A DNA stretch of 64,000 nt from Podarcis vaucheri (taxonomy: Eukaryota), in the NCBI GenBank assembly GCA_965113315.1, contig OZ220368.1; one strand, given 5' to 3'. The notes beneath the pieces are model-generated. The model saw nothing but the letters and a program-made list of their open reading frames with translations, had not been told where the DNA came from and did no database searches. The translations under genes and the position numbers were made by a program. Of this stretch, positions 1 to 62,000 are shown piece after piece; position 1 is the first letter of the stretch, and every line of letters begins with the position of its first letter.

Positions 1-937
1 AATAGAATTTAAATAATGACTTGACAAACAGAATACAGCAGAGTGCATGCAAGAATGTTATCACGTACCATTGGAATATATTTCCTATATGTATGTTCAT
101 GGGCATCTCTCTTTTAATTATGGCAGTAACCACACAGGCACAGTGGATCCTGGAAGACTTAATTTTTGCTGTATCAGAAACTTGTATTTGCCTGGGGCAG
201 ATAACTGTTGCTTCCAAAGGGCAATCTGCGTTAATATGCACAATTAATTTGCTTGTAGTGGAAATCGCTACATAAACTAGTCCTGGTCCACAAGTGGTAA
301 ACAACTGCACTTTTTTGTGAGGTGGCCATGAACTCTCCTGGCATAATACGTTGAGAAACTTGAGCTGGCTCCTAAAATCTGGGCCAAGTAGTTTGGCATC
401 TAGCCAAGGAACACTTCGTTTTGATCCTCTTTAGATCCTCAAGTATTCTGGACAGCTAGAAATTAACAGTTCTTTGATTTGTAGCTCAGTGGATGATACA
501 GTTGCTGGGTCACTGGTTTGTGTTAAAGTAATCCCACTTGGATATAAATTTTTGGTCTCATTGTATTTAAAGAGGGGTGCAAATATAGAATGAATGTTGT
601 ATATTTATTCTTTGTGCACATGAATTTCTTCAGCTCTTGCAGTTTAACAAGTGAGATTTATTTGATAGTACTTCTCTACAAGCCTGAAGTCTGGGCTGAC
701 TTGCAGAAATATTGCACTACAGTATGTGGTGTTTAGCAGTTAGAAATCTACTACATGAGAACTCTTTTTATAGTAGAAATACAGGGAGAGAGGAGAACCT
801 TGAATTACTTCATGCCACCACCTGCTGGCAAAAACTAACCATGTTAATTGAAATCTAGTCTCAGTTATCAGTTGTTTTGTCTGCACTACCTCTTTCCAGT
901 TGTCATTTCCTCCTCTTTTGGTGTATGCTGTGCTTTA

Positions 938-1580
938 GGGAAGGGTCATAGCTCAGTAGCAGAGCACACGTGTTGCATGCTAAAGGGCCCAGGTTCAATC
1001 CCTGGCTTGTCTAAGTAGGGCTGAGAATGTCCCTTGGCTGAGATGATGGATTTTTCGGAGCTAGCCGACCTGACTGGAAGAGTCCGTGACCAGAAGGAGG
1101 AGGATTACCAGGAAGAATTGACGAAATTTAAAGACTATTTAGTTAAATATGTTAAGTTAAATTAATTGGAAAGGCTTGCAAATACCAGATAGGCTTAGGA
1201 CTTAAATATGTAATGTGATAAATTACTATGTTGAAATTTAGATTGGGAAAGAAAGAAGGATGTTAAGTGACTAAGTTAATTTTATGAGAATATAGGTTTT
1301 GGAAAACCTTTAAAATGATATACACTGAAATTCAACCAAGGGGATACGAGGAAGTCGCTTAACAATGTTAATAAGATTAGTTTTAATAAGGTTAGGATTT
1401 ATGATTGTTTGTTTATTTGTTTGTGTGTTTAAACATTTTGTGGAAAACTAATTAAAAAAACTTGGAAAAAATAGAGAATGTCCCTTGGCTGAAACCCTGG
1501 AGAGTCACTGACAGTCAGTGTTAACAATACTGAGCTAGATGGACCAAAGGTCTGACTCAGCCTTGACAGTTTCCTGTGCA
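938..1580 (+). mobile_element. tRNA-derived SINE interrupted by an L1-like insertion
   Basis: A box tagctcagtagcagagc, B box ggttcaatcc; body resumes after 1473; related degenerate copies near 5800, 13320 and 31625. Confidence 0.7.
1042..1473 (+). mobile_element. 5'-truncated L1-like LINE 3' end
   Basis: 19-bp TSD gagaatgtcccttggctga (1023-1041 and 1474-1492); short ORF end MMDFSELADLTGRVRDQKEEDYQEE.TKFKDYL resembling an L1 ORF2 C-terminus; AT-rich 3'UTR and A-rich end. Confidence 0.75.
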
Positions 1581-2109
1581 TTAATGAAAAACGGGTCAAG
1601 AAGGTGGTTTCTAAACATATCCCAAATGGGGTCCCTAAGACTGTTGGGTGGCACCTTGTATGCCCTTCTACCAGCAACTGAGGCAGCCTAGCTTGTGCCA
1701 AACATATTGCTCTGCTTTCCTTTGGACCACATCAGTGAGGCCGGGGGAGGGGGTCTTGTCCGTCTGGGCAGCTCAGGACCTCCATACACACTGGAAAGTT
1801 ACTTCTGTACTGCTAACACAGCAGTTTGTCTTCACCCCTGGACGCACACTCCATTGTCTCTCGAGATAGATGGATGCCAACAAGGAGGATGTCCAGGAGT
1901 TATTGGGGATGCATTCACCTACCAATCTTAAAGTTAATAGATTATTTACTTTTATGATTGTTTGGTTTGAGTTAGTATATCATTAATACAGTTGGAGGAA
2001 CTTACATTTGCCCCACTAAATCCAAGAAGAAATTCCTCACCTGTCTGTACTTTGAAGTTTAACTGTGGTTCTTTTCTTCTCTTTTTAATTTTTTTAAATA
2101 TATTTTCAG

Positions 2110-2256
2110 TATATCAACTGTGGTAACCTAGAACAGCTGTTGGATGGTAATCAACACCTGCCTTGGACAGTAAGGGTGAAGCTGGCACTGGACATTGCTC
2201 TGGGACTCACTTACCTTCACTATAAAGGCATTTTCCATCGGGATCTGACATCCAAG
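2110..2256 (+). CDS. TESK2: TESK2 coding exon ([11 protein letters not shown]...HRDLTSK)
   Basis: ttttcag acceptor, gtac donor, 49 codons of kinase domain. Confidence 0.95.
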
Positions 2257-5200
2257 GTACCATGCGTCTCTATCAAATGAAACCATTTGGCAATAGATGT
2301 GTATTACTTAGTGAACTACAAACAATCTTGCGTAGTTTTACTTTTCTCCAGCCCCACTCAGTGCCTCAAACTGTAAAACTGTTACGTAAAATGTCACTTT
2401 AAAAGATTGTGAAAAAACACTGAAAACATAGTTTAGTGGATTAAACTTTCCCAGAACAACTCATGTTGTGTAGATGTCTGAGAAGAAACTAACCTGAAGT
2501 AGAGGTCACAAATAAATGAGTTAGGATTATGTTCCTGGGAAGGTGGTTGCACAACTTCTTTAATTTGTTCGCAGCAAGTTATTCAAACTTTTAGTTCCCA
2601 AAGCCTAGGGATCCAGCTGCTACACATTTTATAATATAAAACTACAAAAAGATGCAGACATACAGACTTGTCTCTGTGTCGCACCCTACTTTCTTAAAGG
2701 TTTATTGCTGTATATTTAAATGTTCCCCATAACTTCAGATACATTCAACATTGTTCTACAGGTGACCTAAACTGCTACAGAGCAACACTAAGCTGGTAGT
2801 AGTTTTACTCCAGCAACTGTTCAACTGATGCATAAAACAGGGCTACAAATAATTGCATAAACTTTGCTTTTCAAGATGCCGTGTCATTATGACTATTTAA
2901 CATTGCAGCTAGTAATACGAAAATCATTTCTTTCCTTATAAATGTCCCATTGTAATTGCAAACTGGTGAGGAAAGCAATCAGAAATTTATCACCTTGACA
3001 ATTATCTGTTGTTTTGGCACTAATTCATAAACAACACTATTATAAACAGCTAATGATTAAAAAATAGTGATAGTGGTTTTTTAAATGTGCCATAGGTAAA
3101 ATGCCGAGTTACGATGAAGGTTCTCATACCAAAACTGCAAATGACCAGCTGGGATACACTTTAATAGTCTGCCAACTCTGGGGAGATGGGACAAAATGGA
3201 ATAAAGAGTTACTGTCTCTGTTCTTGGGAAGCAAAGCATCCCAAATGCCACATCTTCTGTTTATATGAGTATTTCCAGACTTCAGTATACTGATTTTTGT
3301 AACTGAACTGTGGTCTTTTTTAAACTAATTCAAATGGAGGGCAAATATTAACAGGTGGTATACTTATGGCTGAAGAGTTGTGTGAGCCTTGAAAGTAATT
3401 AGGTTATGCCTGAAACACTAAGATGAGAAGCTTTAGTACAACAGCACTTAGGCTGCATTGATATCACTTAATAGTGTAAAATTGTTTGGTGTTACAATAT
3501 TGGTGAGCAAATCATAATTCCTGTTAGTGTTGCCTGTGGTTTCACTCTATCTTACTATTTAAGTGATTGAGATACAAACGATGAATTCTCCCGTTTGAAT
3601 CAGCCCTGAACTCACTAGGTAGCCTTAAAAAAGCTACATCCTCTCAATGTTGACCCCTCTCCCCACTTGTACTATGATGATATCTACCTTTATAGATAGT
3701 TAGAATTACAACACTATAATGTATTCATATGTGCAACCTTTTTGAACCCTTTAAATCAGGGGCAGGGAAGCTTTAGCAGCTGGTGGGCCATTTTGGCAGC
3801 TCCCCCATCCCCTGCAGACCAATTTGACAGCTGGGTGGAGCTGTCCACTCAAATTACCAAATTACCTGACTTCAACATGACATCAGATGACGCAGAGTAA
3901 TTATTTACCTGTGTTGCCATGGCTTGAGCCATGCCAGTAGATTAAAGTCATTTGAATCACCTGCTTGAATTCAAGCTGGGAATGCAAAGTAATTGGTTCT
4001 TTCAGCAGCACCAATCCTCACTTGCCAAGGAACAACTGGGAGCACACTCCAAATCATTTGTTGGCTGCTGTGTGTCTACCTGCTGCATACTTGACATCAC
4101 AGGTATGGGGTATAGAATTGTAGAGTTGGAAGGGACCCCACAGGCAATCTGTTCCAACCCTCTGAGAGGCAGGAATCTCACCTTGCAATCCCCCATCCAC
4201 TTTGAAACCAAAGCAGACCTGCTTAGCTTTGCAAATGTACTAGCAGTTCTATTTCCTGGCAGAAAGCCCCATTTAATTCAATAGGATTTTCTTCTGGGTA
4301 GGCGTGGTTAGGATTGCACTGCAAACCTCCTTTGCCAGTATTTATCTGACTTGTTCGTGTTTTCTAGGTAGGATCCTAAGAGGTTTTATATTTAAGCCCA
4401 GCAAAGCCCCTAATGGTTGAACATCTTTACCAGTATCACAAAGGACTTGTGTTGAACAGCTAAAATATTTGCATTTCTCACCATTTCTTCTTTGCTTTTA
4501 AACACAGCCTGAGAGGCATTCTGTGAAGCACAGAAGCTCTGGCTGAGGGTCCAGTTCTTTTCCTCATTTGAAAAATAGTAGCATTTTTGCTTGTATGCTT
4601 TCCAGCCAGATGCACATGCATGAAGCTTACAGGGAGAGACAGACAGCTCAGGGTTTTTTGAGGAAAACATCCTTGTGGACCATTTTGGGATCCTTATCAG
4701 ACTAACGACCAAAGGTTCTTCCCTGCACCCTGGTCTAAATGCAAAATATACTGAGAACACTGTGGAGAATGAGGAGTAGATTTCCATGTTGCCATTATGC
4801 TTCTTGAAAAGCTTTCAAGATTTTCAAGTTTGACAAGCCAGAGTAGTACAAAAGCTCCATAATCCTAAAATTAAAAATCCTAAAATAGAAATACCAATGT
4901 TACTTAAATGGTAACAATTCTACTCATCATATTTTTTTATGCTAGCCTTTTTCCTACCTTCCTTTGATTAATGGAATTGCTATTTAAGCTAGTGAACTTT
5001 ATATTTGGATTTAGATAATTTGCTTGTAAAACCTTCAAGTTGGCAGAAAGGAATAATGAAAAAGGATGAGAAGCAGGAGACAATGAGTTATTGTGAGGAT
5101 GCATTTCTTACCTGTTAATGTTTTTAGATAAATCTGTTTTTCTGAGACAAACTTTTGCAGTGCAAAATTGTCTGAACTCTCTCTTGTTTATATATATATA

Positions 5201-8200: not shown

Positions 8201-11200
8201 CATCTGCTCCTTGTCTTTGACAGTTAAGTATCATTGTAATGATGTGGTCATTGTTCTCCAAATCCATTAAAGACTACAGTTTACAGTCCTAGTTAACCTA
8301 CAAGATTTTGGCTAAGTGAGACTTGACAGTGGCTTGCAGACATTGGAAGCAAGTTATTTTTTAATTTTAAAATAGATTAAATGTATGTTGTGATCTATTT
8401 TAAAAAGCAAAATCCCAAAAATGTTCTGAATTGAAATATCAAATTAATGTTCTACCTGAGATCTTAAAATCAGTAAAAAAAGGGAGGGGGGAGAAAGGAA
8501 TTAACACTGTGCTTAAACTACAGCCTAAATGCAGTGTAAACCTAGAAATTATAATTCATAGTAGTAATAATCCATGAACTGAATCTAGCAATGATTTCGC
8601 TTAAAGATATCAAACAGCACAAGAGCCCAATGTATCATATTTGTTCCTTGTTCTGCTTGGAACTCATTCCTAGATGTGTTTGCTCAGAAATCTTGCTGGG
8701 TTCAGTATGATTTGTTCCCAAATGTGAATAGAATTTCCAGCCTTATGGTGCGGTTGAATACTTGTTGAGAATTCCAACTGTGTTCAAGGGGGATTGCTCC
8801 CTAATAAGCATGTTTAAGAGTGGAGCCTTAGGCTGCAATCCAATACATAATTACCTGGGAGTAAGCCTCCTGAATGTAATGCGGCTTACGTCTGACTCAG
8901 CAAGCATAGAATCGCACTCCTAGTTTCTCTAGCCTCCCAAATGTTCCTGTGCTATTGGGTAATTATTCAGGTAACTGTTGCATATTTAGAATTGGGGTGG
9001 ACATTCTTTTTCCCAGTCAAATTGTATAGTAAACCAGAACAGATTGCTAAAAAAAATGAGCAGTAGCTTTGGCTGATCTTCAGATCAGTCATATCTGGAG
9101 ATTGCAGAAGCCAGAGTTTTAGTAGGTATATTTGCCTAGGACTGTATAACTAGTCCTCAAATACATACACTTGGCTGCCTATTGGCCACCAGGCCAATTT
9201 CAGAGTTTTATTTCTGACACACAAACCCCTAAATGGCATAATAGGGGCCTGATTATCTGAAGAAACACCCCATATTGTTCTGGCCAGGCTTTGTGGTTGG
9301 AGGCTCCTCTGGCAGTGCCATTGCTGACTGAAGTCACAAGATGACGCACCAGAGGGTCTTGGCAATAGCACTCCATTTGTGGTACATTCGCTCCCCTCAG
9401 AACTTCACCTGGTGCATACTTGTCTATATTTATGCACCAGCTAATGACTTCTCTCTTCAGCCAGGCCTCTTAAATTTGTGGTGCATGTGCCTGCATTACA
9501 ATGAGAGGTGTTCCTTGTAATACCTGACAGATGGATTAGTTACTATGATTAATGGTTTGTTAGTTGATTGTATATTTAATTTTGTGAGCTGTCTCGAGAT
9601 CGCTTCTGATGAAGGGTGGGATACCATATAACACACACTCTTACTTGCATTGCTTCCTAGTTTTAAGTTTTTAATGGGATTCAAATGTGGACCACACTAA
9701 TCCCCCTCTTCTTTTCATTCAGAACTGTTTGATAAAGCATGATGAGAATGGATATTCTGCTATAGTTGGTGACTTTGGCTTAGCAGAGAAAATCCCCGAC
9801 TTCAGGTAAGTAGCATTTTCGGCATGAATCAAAATGAGGAATATTACTGCAAACATAAAATATGGGGGAAATCCTCAGCCGTGGGAATAAAATGGCAAAG
9901 AAATTTAAAGGTACAGTCTGAAAATTCAGTAAAGCTTTTAATCTGTCAAACAAGTAGTGACCATTCACAGCAGCAGATATTGGTTATAAGTTATTTAACA
10001 GAATCAACTTCTCATTGCTAATACCTGTAGTGGGAGAGAGAACCATTTTGTATATTCAAACAGAATTAAACTTGCCAAACAGGGCAAACAAAATCAAATA
10101 TAGTTATTAGTTCTAATTCTTCTATTTCATGCTAGATTTCCCTTTGAATTTCTTCTAATAGAGAGTGACAGCTTTCAGATCAGCAGCAACCTGCAAAACC
10201 AAAGCTGAAGAAGAACAGGACTGTATTCCACCTGTTTGCAATTATTGGCTTTTTTTAGCCCACCTATTTATATTTTCTCTCTTGTATGCCCCAGTGTGTA
10301 TATGTATCTGTCAAGTGAGGATAACAGTCCCAGCAGCAACTTATGAAATGGACTCCAGACCATGAAAGCTTATGCCATAATAAATTGGTTAGACTTTAAG
10401 GTGCTATAAGCCTCTTTGTTTTAGCTGCAATAGACTAAGACTGAAGTTGCTCTGGGAGTTTTTACCAGGAGTTTGCATAGTGGCTAAATGAGGTCATCTC
10501 CTAAAAAAGATAGATGTTGGTGCTCACCTTGACATGCACGTTTTGATCCTCAGTGTTTGCTCAGTGATGAATATAAGTACTTTGCACATGCTCAGGTATA
10601 TCTTCCTTTACACGATCCGCATTTGAGTTCTCACACTGAAATCAGTTCCTGAAAGTTCCGTACAGTTCTTTCAGATATCATCATGCCACTTAGAAACCTT
10701 TCTCCTTGCCTTCCTGTTTTTCATTTTCTTTTTTAAAAAAGATTTCAAAATGGTTTAACTGCTGTGTAAGGTACCATGAATACTAATGAGTGGGGTTCTG
10801 TAAAATGACTATTTTAGTGACTATTTTGACCCTGAACATGCTTCAAGCAGTTATGCAAATCAGTATTGTCATATTCTTCCCATTGGATAAGTGATCCATT
10901 AATGAACTGAACTAGAACAGTTTGGGTGAAACAAAATTAAACTAAAAAATGTACTGACTCAACACAGCTGCTCTATAAATATGGAAATGAATTATTTCAA
11001 TTTCCAGGAAGCGTCCCATCATGCTTCCTAAGTAGAATACTTTTCTGAATTGTCTAGGGAGAAACTTCTGAATAGTCTGATTTGTCATGGGATATTTTGT
11101 TCAAGATAATGATTATCTGCTATTGAATGGTGTTCTGAAGTGTCAACTGCTGCCTGTTAATGATATCTGAAGACTTGCTCTAAAGAGCCTAGAATATGAA

Positions 11201-49666: not shown

Positions 49667-50869
49667 TCAAACTTGCTGGTCCATATAGTTTTGTACAGAC
49701 TGCCAGAGAGCACGAATGTTTCCCTCGCCAAAACCTGTGGCCCCACATCGCTCTATAAGCTCCAGGAAGAAAGTATCCTCTGTAAAGAGAGGCTTTGTGA
49801 AGATCTGCATGAGGTATTGCTTCTCACAAAGGCCTCCAGAGCTACCGCTGCCTCCTACGCCAGCGTCCAGAAGGATGCCGTGGTCCTTCAGGAGCTGAAG
49901 ATTTTGCCCAGCTTGCCTTATCTCCTCCACCTTCCTTTTCTCACTGTAGTATGATAAGGGGGGCTTGAAAAAGTTTGCGCCAGATCTGGCCATGGCCGCA
50001 GCGGCTCCTATAATACCTGTGGTGTAGAGTGCCACGTGTTGGATGCCCGATCCACCGTGCTGCTCTAAAAAAGTATCCACCTGGTTCTTCTTTTGATCTG
50101 ACAGAGACTCAGCTAGAATAATTTTACAGTCATTGCAAAGCAGAGTCGGATCGCTTCCATTGGACTGCATGGCAGTAAGACGAAGACCCATACCAGCACC
50201 CTGGATTGTATAGCCATCAGTACCATTGTCTTGCTGGTGGATGGGGAAACGCTGGAATCCCAAACAGTTCTTGTACCAGTCCAACACAGCTTGCGAGCTA
50301 CCTTGGGGGCAAGCATAGGTGATATGGTCAAAATGTGTCACCTGGCCACCCACCTGGACCTTGGGAGCACCCTCCACCATGTGGAAACCAGGTAGGAACG
50401 GTCCGCTGTACCGAGATCTGTCCAGTAGTGTGTGGCTGACGTTGCCTATGATGGATCCCACTACTGAATAAGTGACGTGGCCATTTTCATCTTCCACAGC
50501 TGTGGGAGGGATGAGGATCTGGCATCCTCGTTCCTGTAGGCTTTGGGAGATGCCAGGTACATCTTCTGCCTCAAAGCAAATGTTGGAGGCTGTACTGACG
50601 GCATATTCTAGGTCCACGTCGTACAGAATTCCTTTATCCTTGCGGCAGCCTGAAGATGGCACAGGTGGAGCGTCTCTCTTGGCAGGCTTCAGCCTTTCAT
50701 TGACGAGAAAAATGGCATCCCCTCTTCGGAAAGCCAGCTGCCTGCTCCATTCTGCTACCCGTGCAGCAAACAGCTCGAATCCAAATTGGCGCACCAAGTT
50801 GCTGGCCAGCTGTTGCCCCTCAGGGACGTGGAACCCAATGTGGCACATCCGGTTCAGAAGACCAGGCAT
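49667..50869 (-). CDS. HPDL: 4-hydroxyphenylpyruvate dioxygenase-like protein, single coding exon, 400 aa
   Basis: MPGLLNRMCHIGFHVP...; Fe ligands FDHITY, IQHVAL, FLELIER; C-terminal GFGEGNIRALWQSVQ; synteny. Confidence 0.96.
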   Translation of the reverse strand: MPGLLNRMCHIGFHVPEGQQLASNLVRQFGFELFAARVAEWSRQLAFRRGDAIFLVNERLKPAKRDAPPVPSSGCRKDKGILYDVDLEYAVSTASNICFEAEDVPGISQSLQERGCQILIPPTAVEDENGHVTYSVVGSIIGNVSHTLLDRSRYSGPFLPGFHMVEGAPKVQVGGQVTHFDHITYACPQGSSQAVLDWYKNCLGFQRFPIHQQDNGTDGYTIQGAGMGLRLTAMQSNGSDPTLLCNDCKIILAESLSDQKKNQVDTFLEQHGGSGIQHVALYTTGIIGAAAAMARSGANFFKPPLSYYSEKRKVEEIRQAGQNLQLLKDHGILLDAGVGGSGSSGGLCEKQYLMQIFTKPLFTEDTFFLELIERCGATGFGEGNIRALWQSVQNYMDQQV

Positions 50870-50959
50870 TATGCAGTTCGAAATGGTGGTCAGTGGTAAC
50901 ACAACTTTCGCTGCTAGACCTACAGAAACAGAAAAGAAAGCCAGCTCAGTTGTTGTGGG

Positions 50960-51080
50960 GTGGAGAAGCTCAGTCGGTAGAGCACAATAATCTTGGGGTC
51001 ATGAGTTCGAGTCTCACATTAGGCAAAAGTACCCTGCATTACAGAGGGGGTTGGGCTAGATGACCCTAGTGGTCCCTTCC
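50960..51080 (+). mobile_element. tRNA-derived SINE with CR1-like tail
   Basis: agctcagtcggtagagc A box, gagttcgagtc B box, ctagatgaccc..ggtcccttcc tail. Confidence 0.65.
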
Positions 51081-59031: not shown

Positions 59032-62000
59032 GTGAGTTCATAGAGAAGGTTGCCTGAGTCAGGGGCTGTTAGGTCGCAGCCACACCATACATTTGACGCA
59101 CATGGCTTTCCCCAAAGAGTCATGGGAACCGCAGTTTAAGAGTGCTGGGAACTGTAGCTCTCTGAGGGGGTAAATCACAGTTCCCATAATGCTTTGGGGA
59201 AAGTCACATGCTTTAAAAAGATGGTCTGGATGTGACTAGAAAGTCAGATATGTGTTGGAACCCTGTATCTGGTGTTCAGTGGCAATATCACAGCTTAGGG
59301 ACAAAGGTCACATCTTTGTCCCTAAGCTTTCTACCAGGAAACACAGAACTGAACTGATTGTTTATAAGCTCCAGTTCAGCAATCAAAAATTGAGGCCTGG
59401 GCTACAGCAGGCCAGATATAACATGCATATAGATGGTGGATGCAATTTTCCTGGTGAATTACAGCTCAAGTATAATATGTATCATGTAACTTATTGCTGG
59501 ATCTATGTAGCAGGAACTGCTGTAATGGCAAGTCCAGTGAACTGATAAAGGAAGGGGCCTCCGTCCAGCAGTGCAGGCTCATATCCCACATGGTATGTGC
59601 AGAGGGCAAGGGCTGGAACCTATAATTGTGCACTGCATTTCCTAAACGTTGCTTGTTCTTCCTACCCACCAGCCTTGGCAGCTTGCAGAGGAAGCTGTCA
59701 CTTGAAGGAGTGACCAATGTCAGCTTCATGATTGTGAATGAGAAGACTCCTTTCTCCAGGGCTATGTACTGGGAGCTCAAACGGCATGCCCCAGAGGGAG
59801 TCCCTGTTTACCAGCAGCAGATTCTGGAGCCTGACGTCTGGCAAATTCTAGATGGGGACAAGGATGACTTCCTGATCTATGACAGGTCAGTGCTTAAGGG
59901 AGCAATTCTAACTCCCCACCCACCCAGACTGATAGGGTTTTTGGAGAGTCAGGGCCACTGCTGTGCATAGCAGCCGGGGCAGAAGGGAGGGAAGGCAGAT
60001 CACTGAGCCAGCTTGGAGCTGGTGCAGCAATTGAGCCTGGAAGAAGCCCAGTTCTGGCAGTGGGACCATCTCAGGATCCAATGAACTGCAGGGCGGCTCA
60101 GTCCAGCTCCTTCCTTGGCTGCTGAAAGTCCCTGCTGCCACCAGCAGGGATCCCATCAGCAGCACTAGCGGGGGCAGAAGAGGGTGCTCCGTAGGCAGCT
60201 GCTGGTGGGAGGCCAATGGGGGTCTGCAGGCCTGGGCAGAAGGAAGGAAAGTAAGATATATGGAATTCAGGATTCTTGAATACATTATCAAAAAGTCTGT
60301 TTGAGGACACATCTGGAAAGAAAGGACATACCATGATGTAAATGTTTCTCTTTACCATCATGTCTCACAACTATTGGTGAGAAAAACCAGATTATTCAGG
60401 CCAGGTTAGATTCATTTCCAGTGTAAATTAGTGGATTACAGGCTCTCCTGACACTAACTTTATGTCCATTTGTTTCATGGCTCTCGGGCTTTGCAGGTGC
60501 AGCAGGCTGGCTTTCCACATCCAGCTGCCATACAGTTTTCTGCACTTGCCCTATGTTGAAGCAGCCGTGCGGTACACACACAGCAAAGACTACTGTGGCA
60601 ATTGTTCCTGGTACCCCTCTAACAGCAGCCAGGAGGTAGGGACTTGAATCCCCTCATCAACTTCCTTTTCAACTATTTTATTTAAGCCAGACATTTCCTC
60701 ATTTGCCCATCCTGAACTTCTGCCTGGGAATTCTAGGTTTCTGATCAGATCGGTCTTACAGCAGGAATGTGGGAGGAGAAGGTGGAAGGGAGGGTTTTAT
60801 TATATTGGGCCACTACAGCAAGCAAGGAGAAAGGATGTTGAGATACCACAAAGCAGGAAGTAAACCATCTTGAAATAAAAACCTCAGAAGCAAATTGCAG
60901 GTGGAGACACCAGGTCTGCCGCAGTCACAGATAGTGTAGTGTGGAGGGGTCCAGGAGAACCCAGGTGGGAGGACATGCTAACCCCCCCCCCCACTTTCAG
61001 CTTCTCACACTCCCCCAAGTGCTTTTCTCCCCAGTTGAGTTCAGATACTAAAAGTGAGATTGACTTGGAGAAAGACACTTTGGAACAGAAGCTGTGTGGC
61101 ATCAAGTGCAGGAAAGGTTTGGTTCCCCTCACCCAGGCACCCCTTTTCTCTAAAGTCAACCCCACCTTCCTGTTTTGCACATGGTGGGGCAAGACCTGGA
61201 TCTGCTGCTATCATGTACTGCTTGAGCCTCACCCAGTAGCCATTGTCTGCCCTCAGTTATTGAAAAAAATAAATTAACACCCTTAATTTGTCAGGTTGAA
61301 GTGCTTCCTGTTCCCAATGAATGGGAGCATGTTGTTCCTTGGACAGAAGAAATAATAACTGCTGTCTTGTCCTGTGGTGTCACTTCCTGCCCCATCAGTG
61401 ATCTGAAAGTTCATTCCTCAAGGTGGGATTGCGGGAGGACCCTGATGTATTACCTATTTTAGTTTTTTGCTGCCCCGATAGCCAATGCAGCAAAATATTA
61501 TAAATACCTTTTAAGCCATTTCGACCATAACGAGAGTGAAGTCAAACAGATCTCCTTCCAGGAGTCGGTGCAGGTTTTTCTGATCTGGAGAAATCAAACC
61601 TTCTTCCCTCCCTGCTCTTTTGAGAGAGATATGTACTTGGCTTAAACTCCTGTGCAGCTTTTTGCCTCTCAAACTTTGGGCTTTTAAAAACCATTTCTAC
61701 GCCTAAACATCCAGCATGTTTACTCATTTAAACTTCTATTTTACACATTCTTTAAAACCACTTTTTAAGTGACTGCCAGGCAATCACCATTCTTCACAGC
61801 CAATTTCTCCTGAAAACAGAAAGTAGCAGTTGTTCTGAGCTCAGTTGATTTTGGAAGTTTACATATTTTGTCAAAAAGGGCTGAATTCAGATCACTTCAG
61901 ATATATACATCCATCTTCACTTTAAAAAATGTGTTTCTGTCTTCACCCTAAGCCCATCTGTATACTAGAATCTTTCATTACCTTCACAGGTGAATAAGAC

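Follow-up and report, generated by a model that had tools for sequence, protein, structure and literature searches.

The TESK2 locus and its orphan lectin exon

The window analysed here is a 64,000-nucleotide stretch of the Podarcis vaucheri genome (assembly GCA_965113315.1, contig OZ220368.1), and positions refer to it unless another contig is named. TESK2 coding exons lie on the plus strand from about -24 kb to +19 kb. Beyond TESK2, Pfam matches mark CAF1 (TOE1-like, minus strand) and NUDIX_4 (MUTYH-like, plus strand), with further glyoxalase-fold- and SelP-like matches; these gene names are read from Pfam. An intronless 443-codon frame at 49670-50998 (minus strand) has glyoxalase-family matches and is presumably HPDL-like, and an exon at 59626-59967 (plus strand) matches the Selenoprotein P N-terminus (E 7e-26). 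One TESK2 intron, bounded by the first two features below, holds a lectin exon in antisense, the nesting that an earlier note on this DNA had described.

2110-2256, plus strand: TESK2 kinase exon that precedes the host intron, ending HRDLTSK
9723-9805 (end approximate), plus strand: TESK2 kinase exon that follows the host intron, starting NCLIK and containing DFG
4482-4652, minus strand: stalk/first CTLD exon copied from a CLEC2D-like gene and truncated at its 5' end, 145 of 171 nt identical to the donor

The minus-strand frame at 4658-4482 is stop-free, has C-x10-C-x16-C spacing and closes at ATG before gtgaga, as the earlier note said. Its assignment to the CLEC2/CD69-type lectins is borne out by a phmmer search of PDB with the ~59-residue peptide, which found 136 distinct sequences at E<=0.01; the top match is an NKG2D construct (6e-16, two domains summed), followed by CLEC2D (3e-10) and then Clr, CLEC2A and CD69. 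The longer database relatives, six in all, are lectins from lacertids; four carry the name CLEC2D-like. The exon resembles the lacertid CLEC2D-like type II genes (CLEC2/CD69 group) in its 71-76% identity to Zootoca and Podarcis proteins and in the same phase-0 exon end. Unlike those genes, it is one truncated exon that stands outside the C10 lectin cluster described below, with no cytoplasmic, TM, WIGL or final exon. The two fragments tested gave no Pfam Lectin_C match, the outcome that the earlier note had offered as grounds for dropping the lectin reading. This is a false negative, because the model match on the full relative P0002 begins only at residue 91; judged from that relative, Lectin_C covers less than half of the orphan exon. 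The exon is thus confirmed as real and CLEC2-like.

In the 123 kb covering all TESK2 coding exons, including sequence upstream of the window, tblastn with six close homologues and a motif scan recovered this single lectin exon and no second one. The WIGL and final exons that the earlier note had looked for in vain at 1-4480 are absent from the whole 123 kb, as are the cytoplasmic and TM exons, and a whole-genome search found no CTLD2/3 match near the orphan exon. The proposal of a nested lectin gene with 3' exons to the left of the window is refuted, since only one exon is present in 123 kb.

Donor gene and anatomy of the insert

In the animal's own genome, 22 of 26 lectin protein matches cluster at C10:116.0-116.9 Mb, and the best of them (74%) lies at C10:116361104-277. 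A DNA search of the genome returned two matches, the window itself and C10:116361005-274; as this search scores the best candidates only, the copy count is a lower bound. The C10 locus belongs to a complete gene with cytoplasmic, TM, CTLD1, CTLD2 (WIGV) and CTLD3 exons. With six close homologues, tblastn recovered its cytoplasmic, CTLD1, CTLD2 and CTLD3 exons, and the TM exon weakly (E 7e-5 to 1e-3). Judged from these predicted exons, the donor CLEC2D-like gene is intact; its lectin cluster lies on a different contig from the window, namely C10, which is longer than 100 Mb and represents another chromosome.

G000:C10:116361282-116361104: donor CTLD1 exon

In the region C10:116.03-116.93 Mb, first CTLD exons of CLEC2/KLR-like type number at least 22, and some of them form near-identical pairs; three weaker lectin-exon matches lie beyond the cluster (C39:34065908, C28:2958478 and C29:33872239). 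The same contig carries an MHC class I cluster ~10 Mb from the lectin genes (26 of 32 MHC matches, at 127.1-130.6 Mb); in Anolis the MHC is placed on chromosome 2 in the available text of PMC9679377. MHC class I matches away from the main cluster were seen at C38:2115988-2116477, C10:40520836-40521230 and C34:25797209-25797481. At C38 and C10:40520836 the alpha1 and alpha2 parts are almost adjacent, resembling an intron-less retrocopy, and some matches beyond the main cluster contain stops.

The copied DNA forms an insert of ~545 nt (4656-4112) in which a single lectin exon is followed by ~230 nt of the adjoining intron and a short CR1-tailed repeat. When 123 kb surrounding the window was compared with 39.6 kb surrounding the donor, the only unique DNA in common was 4652-4112. 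Besides the exon, the insert has two parts:

4254-4481, minus strand: donor intron copied unspliced, 187 of 228 aligned nt identical to the donor intron
4112-4253, minus strand: 5'-truncated SINE-like repeat at the 3' end of the insert, copied with the donor intron

The exon copy lacks the acceptor and the first 2-8 nt of the donor exon and retains its GT donor site. Identity to the donor is 85% in the exon and 82% in the intron, where the donor carries an extra insertion of ~140 nt; a small high-copy hairpin repeat, visible as high depth and loose ends in sequencing runs, lies near 4264-4325 within the copied intron. The copied segment spans no complete intron. A processed pseudogene with the TM exon fused to the CTLD exon was considered and rejected: the upstream DNA is a MITE and the intron is retained.

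The repeat at 4112-4253 is a ~160-nt high-copy interspersed unit with a CR1-type tail; a first look gave 1717 candidates, of which the best 40 were scored. Its middle part may be likened to the internal promoter of 5S rRNA. An Rfam search of the window copy and of a better-kept copy detected no 5S sequence and returned nothing above the gathering score. Among 29 solo copies there was no clear TSD and none above chance. The last ~68 nt (4179-4112) form the CR1-type tail, a 10-bp stem plus ATTCTAT, and the majority line of the repeat has ATTCTATG-type units at its end, after a stem. One of 11 matches to the tail closes a LINE-like fragment whose frame encodes WNRLP...FKQRL; we take this fragment to be the end of CR1 ORF2. 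The available SINEBase description (PMC3531059) contains no match for the repeat. As far as the available texts describe it, CR1 requires a 3' hairpin plus ATTCTRTG (PMC8665684), and SINE tails recruit the enzyme of their partner LINE (PMC3747384).

The repeat in the window is the donor's own copy. It has the identical 5' truncation point and shares with the donor's repeat four changes at 15 comparable sites, a test based on these four sites, while 29 other copies share 0-3 of 18 (mean 1.1). Two of the shared changes, at 4165 and 4145, lie in its 3' half. The window tail retains its 10-bp stem and the donor tail has since lost one arm; the fold of the window tail is no better than that of shuffles (z -0.28), which we count against a CR1 route. 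In the donor the tail is in sense orientation, and the 39.6 kb of donor DNA contains four such tails, three of them in sense. By post hoc arithmetic, the chance that a random breakpoint falls within 10 nt of a tail is about 0.2-1%.

The insert interrupts an older hAT-like MITE, and because it splits this element, the two MITE parts fix both of its junctions:

4733-4740, minus strand: left copy of the probable 8-bp MITE TSD, ATTTAGAC, 6 of 8 letters identical to the right copy
4657-4732, minus strand: left part of the MITE, with the left TIR starting at 4732 (profile model 34-121, E 2e-7)
4653-4659, minus strand: A-run at the 5' junction, where MITE CCCCAAA and donor exon start GGAAAG may share an AAA microhomology
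3757-4110, minus strand: right part of this MITE, with the right TIR at its end (model 148-260, E 2e-15)
3749-3756, minus strand: right copy of the probable 8-bp MITE TSD, ATTTAAAG

The first clue to the MITE was that DNA past 4112 matched an old repeat. Searched as DNA by itself, 4650-4770 matched nothing but its own position, single-copy MITE alignments scored no better than shuffles, and the link surfaced just with a profile: nhmmer with a profile of 31 other MITE copies matched 4727-4651 and 4101-4003, on the same strand and in model order. The right TIR is an inverted terminal match at 3740-3783 (E 0.007), 4110-4100 was aligned by eye to the MITE majority line, and the profile has no match in 2 kb of the donor. 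We take the element to be hAT-like from its CAGGG ends and 8-bp TSD rather than from a library. It spans 4732-3757, and ~13 of its ~440 nt (about 3%) are missing at the insertion site.

At the 3' junction the insert ends at 4112-4111 and the MITE resumes at 4110, 1-2 nt past the ATTCTAT of the tail; the donor has ACCCACA, resembling the CCCCACA of the MITE, a few nt beyond its tail. The AAA and CCCACA-like overlaps are by-eye readings of sequences ~18% diverged, and the A-run varies in length in relatives (2-nt insertion after 4653, run X9). No TSD flanks the insert. These boundaries change how the splice signals listed in the earlier note are read. The strings ttttcctcAA, catttag and cag/gtaaga are all found at the locus. 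The first, described as a decayed phase-1 acceptor, is MITE body (TTTTCCCCAAA), the native acceptor never having been copied, and the alternative catttag acceptor (4734) is the left end/TSD of the MITE.

Drift of the copy and its presence in relatives

When 57 residues were polarised with a Zootoca protein, 10 changes were specific to the copy, two to the donor and one to Zootoca, and two were three-way. The 10 amino-acid changes in the copy compare with two in the donor (binomial p 0.04); the L-to-Q change in LAV, given in the earlier note as a hint of decay, is genuine and specific to the copy. Two residues present in Zootoca and lost in the Podarcis-type donor are retained in the copy, indicating that the copy is old. 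With 10% divergence per lineage (half of the distance measured in the intron), neutral simulation gave a median of 11 changes in the copy (5-95% range 6-16); the frame stayed open in 20-29% of runs, and open with all three core cysteines in 10-15%. The pairwise dN/dS between copy and donor is 0.26, with a dS of 0.46 from just 32 sites and the donor lineage included, and is counted against neutrality. At 4519-4563, 45 nt are identical in copy and donor (shuffle P 0.004), and in relatives the tract of both falls in one common contig; this may reflect chance, constraint on the donor or old ectopic gene conversion.

Eight of 24 listed sequencing runs of relatives were examined; the exon variants counted from them are a lower bound. 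DNA contigs of five related organisms all contain the insert. Organism H carries a 2-nt insertion after 4501 in both of its two samples, a frameshift in one of the five organisms that cover the site. The 2-nt insertion after 4653 occurs in organism E and disrupts the frame from 4734, and organism F has a Ser-to-Arg change at 4542. A 66-nt contig of run X9 (organism E), covering 4534-4577, has copy-type letters and a 1-nt insertion after 4561 and may be a second allele or a further copy. Its loose end after TA at 4577 presumably resembles a DNA-transposon terminus.

Two runs, X15 and X17, were taken as RNA by guess, with uncovered parts left out. The earlier note had suggested looking for minus-strand splice junctions at 4482; the spliced contigs in these two runs are donor-type instead, being donor alleles that continue into the donor's next exon. 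Run X17 (organism J) also has an orthologous contig at 4506-4849 (345 nt, 21 differences, depth 4.98), which reads across the 5' junction and both candidate acceptors without being spliced. The insert is therefore shared with a lizard about 6% diverged.

Origin of the fragment and its meaning

With a little more belief than doubt, we regard the locus as a ~545-nt single-copy fragment, likely non-functional, that was likely made by CR1 reverse transcriptase priming on the tail in the donor's unspliced RNA. In the probable order of events, a short CR1-tailed repeat would have inserted in sense into the donor intron, and a hAT-like MITE into the TESK2 intron. In the germ line, CR1 ORF2 protein would then have bound the tail hairpin in donor pre-mRNA; copying would have run ~545 nt upstream and halted just inside the exon, and a short microhomology would have joined the end with ~13 nt of target deleted and no TSD. 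The copy would since have drifted about 10% per lineage. CR1-tail-primed retro-copying is favoured over gap-filling by the exact end of the insert at a sense CR1 tail, by its 5' truncation, by the absence of a TSD and by the deletion of ~13 nt of target. The earlier note's suggestion of a translocated exon holds, and the donor is now identified; as for its "DNA-level" part, an RNA intermediate would fit the junctions better. CR1 specificity is thought to limit retrocopies of host RNAs (available text of PMC5470649), and a host RNA carrying the tail would presumably escape that limit. An empty orthologous site was seen in none of the DNA runs examined, every one of which carries the insert, and we count this against the CR1 route.

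Filling of a break in the MITE by DNA synthesis that switched templates to the other chromosome's lectin locus, with no RNA step, would leave a dead single-copy Pack-TIR, an origin that we hold possible and rather doubtful. As in the single-copy Pack-TIRs described by Tan et al. (2021; available text of PMC8277862), a host-gene fragment with an identifiable parent lies in a short, degenerate hAT-type element, here with intact ends and a probable 8-bp TSD, is single-copy (a lower bound) and keeps its intron. The small element deletion (~13 of ~440 nt) and the short overlaps that can be read as microhomologies at both joints would also agree, the gap being about 3% of the element against a median of 4.6% in the same text, and the ACCCACA/CCCCACA DNA microhomology could account for the 3' joint too. 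Single-copy Pack-TIRs are, however, mostly intrachromosomal there (59.8%, with 56.9% within 15 kb), whereas the TESK2 insert came from another chromosome. Its 3' end is a sense CR1 tail brought from the donor, which points to reverse transcription, not gap-filling; the DNA route leaves this end unexplained, at that same chance of about 0.2-1%, unless the tail hairpin stalls synthesis. One-sided ectopic recombination, in which a resident repeat copy in the MITE gave homology to the donor's and repair synthesis ran through intron and exon, would draw on the great abundance of the repeat and on a divergence between window and donor copies that seems greater in the tail than across the intron. We judge it improbable: donor-shared changes extend to 4165 and 4145, leaving just 33-53 nt for a crossover, and the resident's 5' part must also have disappeared along with just 13 nt of MITE.

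That the exon still serves as part of a nested or chimeric lectin, through an antisense gene, TOE1 read-through or upkeep by occasional gene conversion from the donor, strikes us as very hard to credit. It would accord with the open frame, the GT donor site and the retained core cysteines, with the low dN/dS and the 45-nt identical tract, with an in-frame AG at 4734 and with TOE1-like exons upstream on the same strand. Against it stand MITE sequence in place of the native phase-1 acceptor, the absence of TM, CTLD2 and CTLD3 exons from the surrounding 123 kb, the frameshift in organism H and the organism E insertion that breaks the 4734 frame, a neutral number of amino-acid changes (10 against 2, at a neutral median of 11) and the unspliced X17 contig. 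There is no new lectin gene at the TESK2 locus, and the exon copy, judged by its sequence, is likely a non-functional, dead relic.

Origin by CR1-tail priming also invites comparison with SVA 5' transductions (available text of PMC3287187), in which upstream host-transcript sequence likewise moved with a non-autonomous element; that text also reports an SVA insertion that is 5'-truncated, lacks a TSD and deleted 11 bp of its target. Unlike SVA, the TESK2 element is a 5'-truncated CR1-tailed repeat with no poly(A), its cargo is an unspliced exon plus intron, and its presumed enzyme is CR1, described in PMC5470649, in the text available, as too sequence-specific for most cellular RNAs. A literature search, mostly at title level and among papers outside subscription, found no description of a lectin fragment at TESK2 and no CR1-tail-primed copies of host pre-mRNA in squamates.

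The orphan exon is of interest for mechanism only, not as a gene. Belief and doubt are evenly balanced for us on a wider proposal, that CR1 LINEs shuffle lizard exons via CR1-type tails in host introns: any intron with a sense tail would let its unspliced upstream exon be retro-copied genome-wide, the TESK2 copy would be a fossil of this process, and some captures that pass for Pack-TIR events would be retro-insertions of the same kind. Neither a retained intron nor a flanking TIR element is proof that a copy arose at the DNA level, and caution is due in reading them so. If the CR1 route is true, ectopic intron-containing copies genome-wide should end at sense CR1 tails. The locus may offer a fully delimited test case for host-exon duplication in CR1-rich reptiles without poly(A)-based retroposition.
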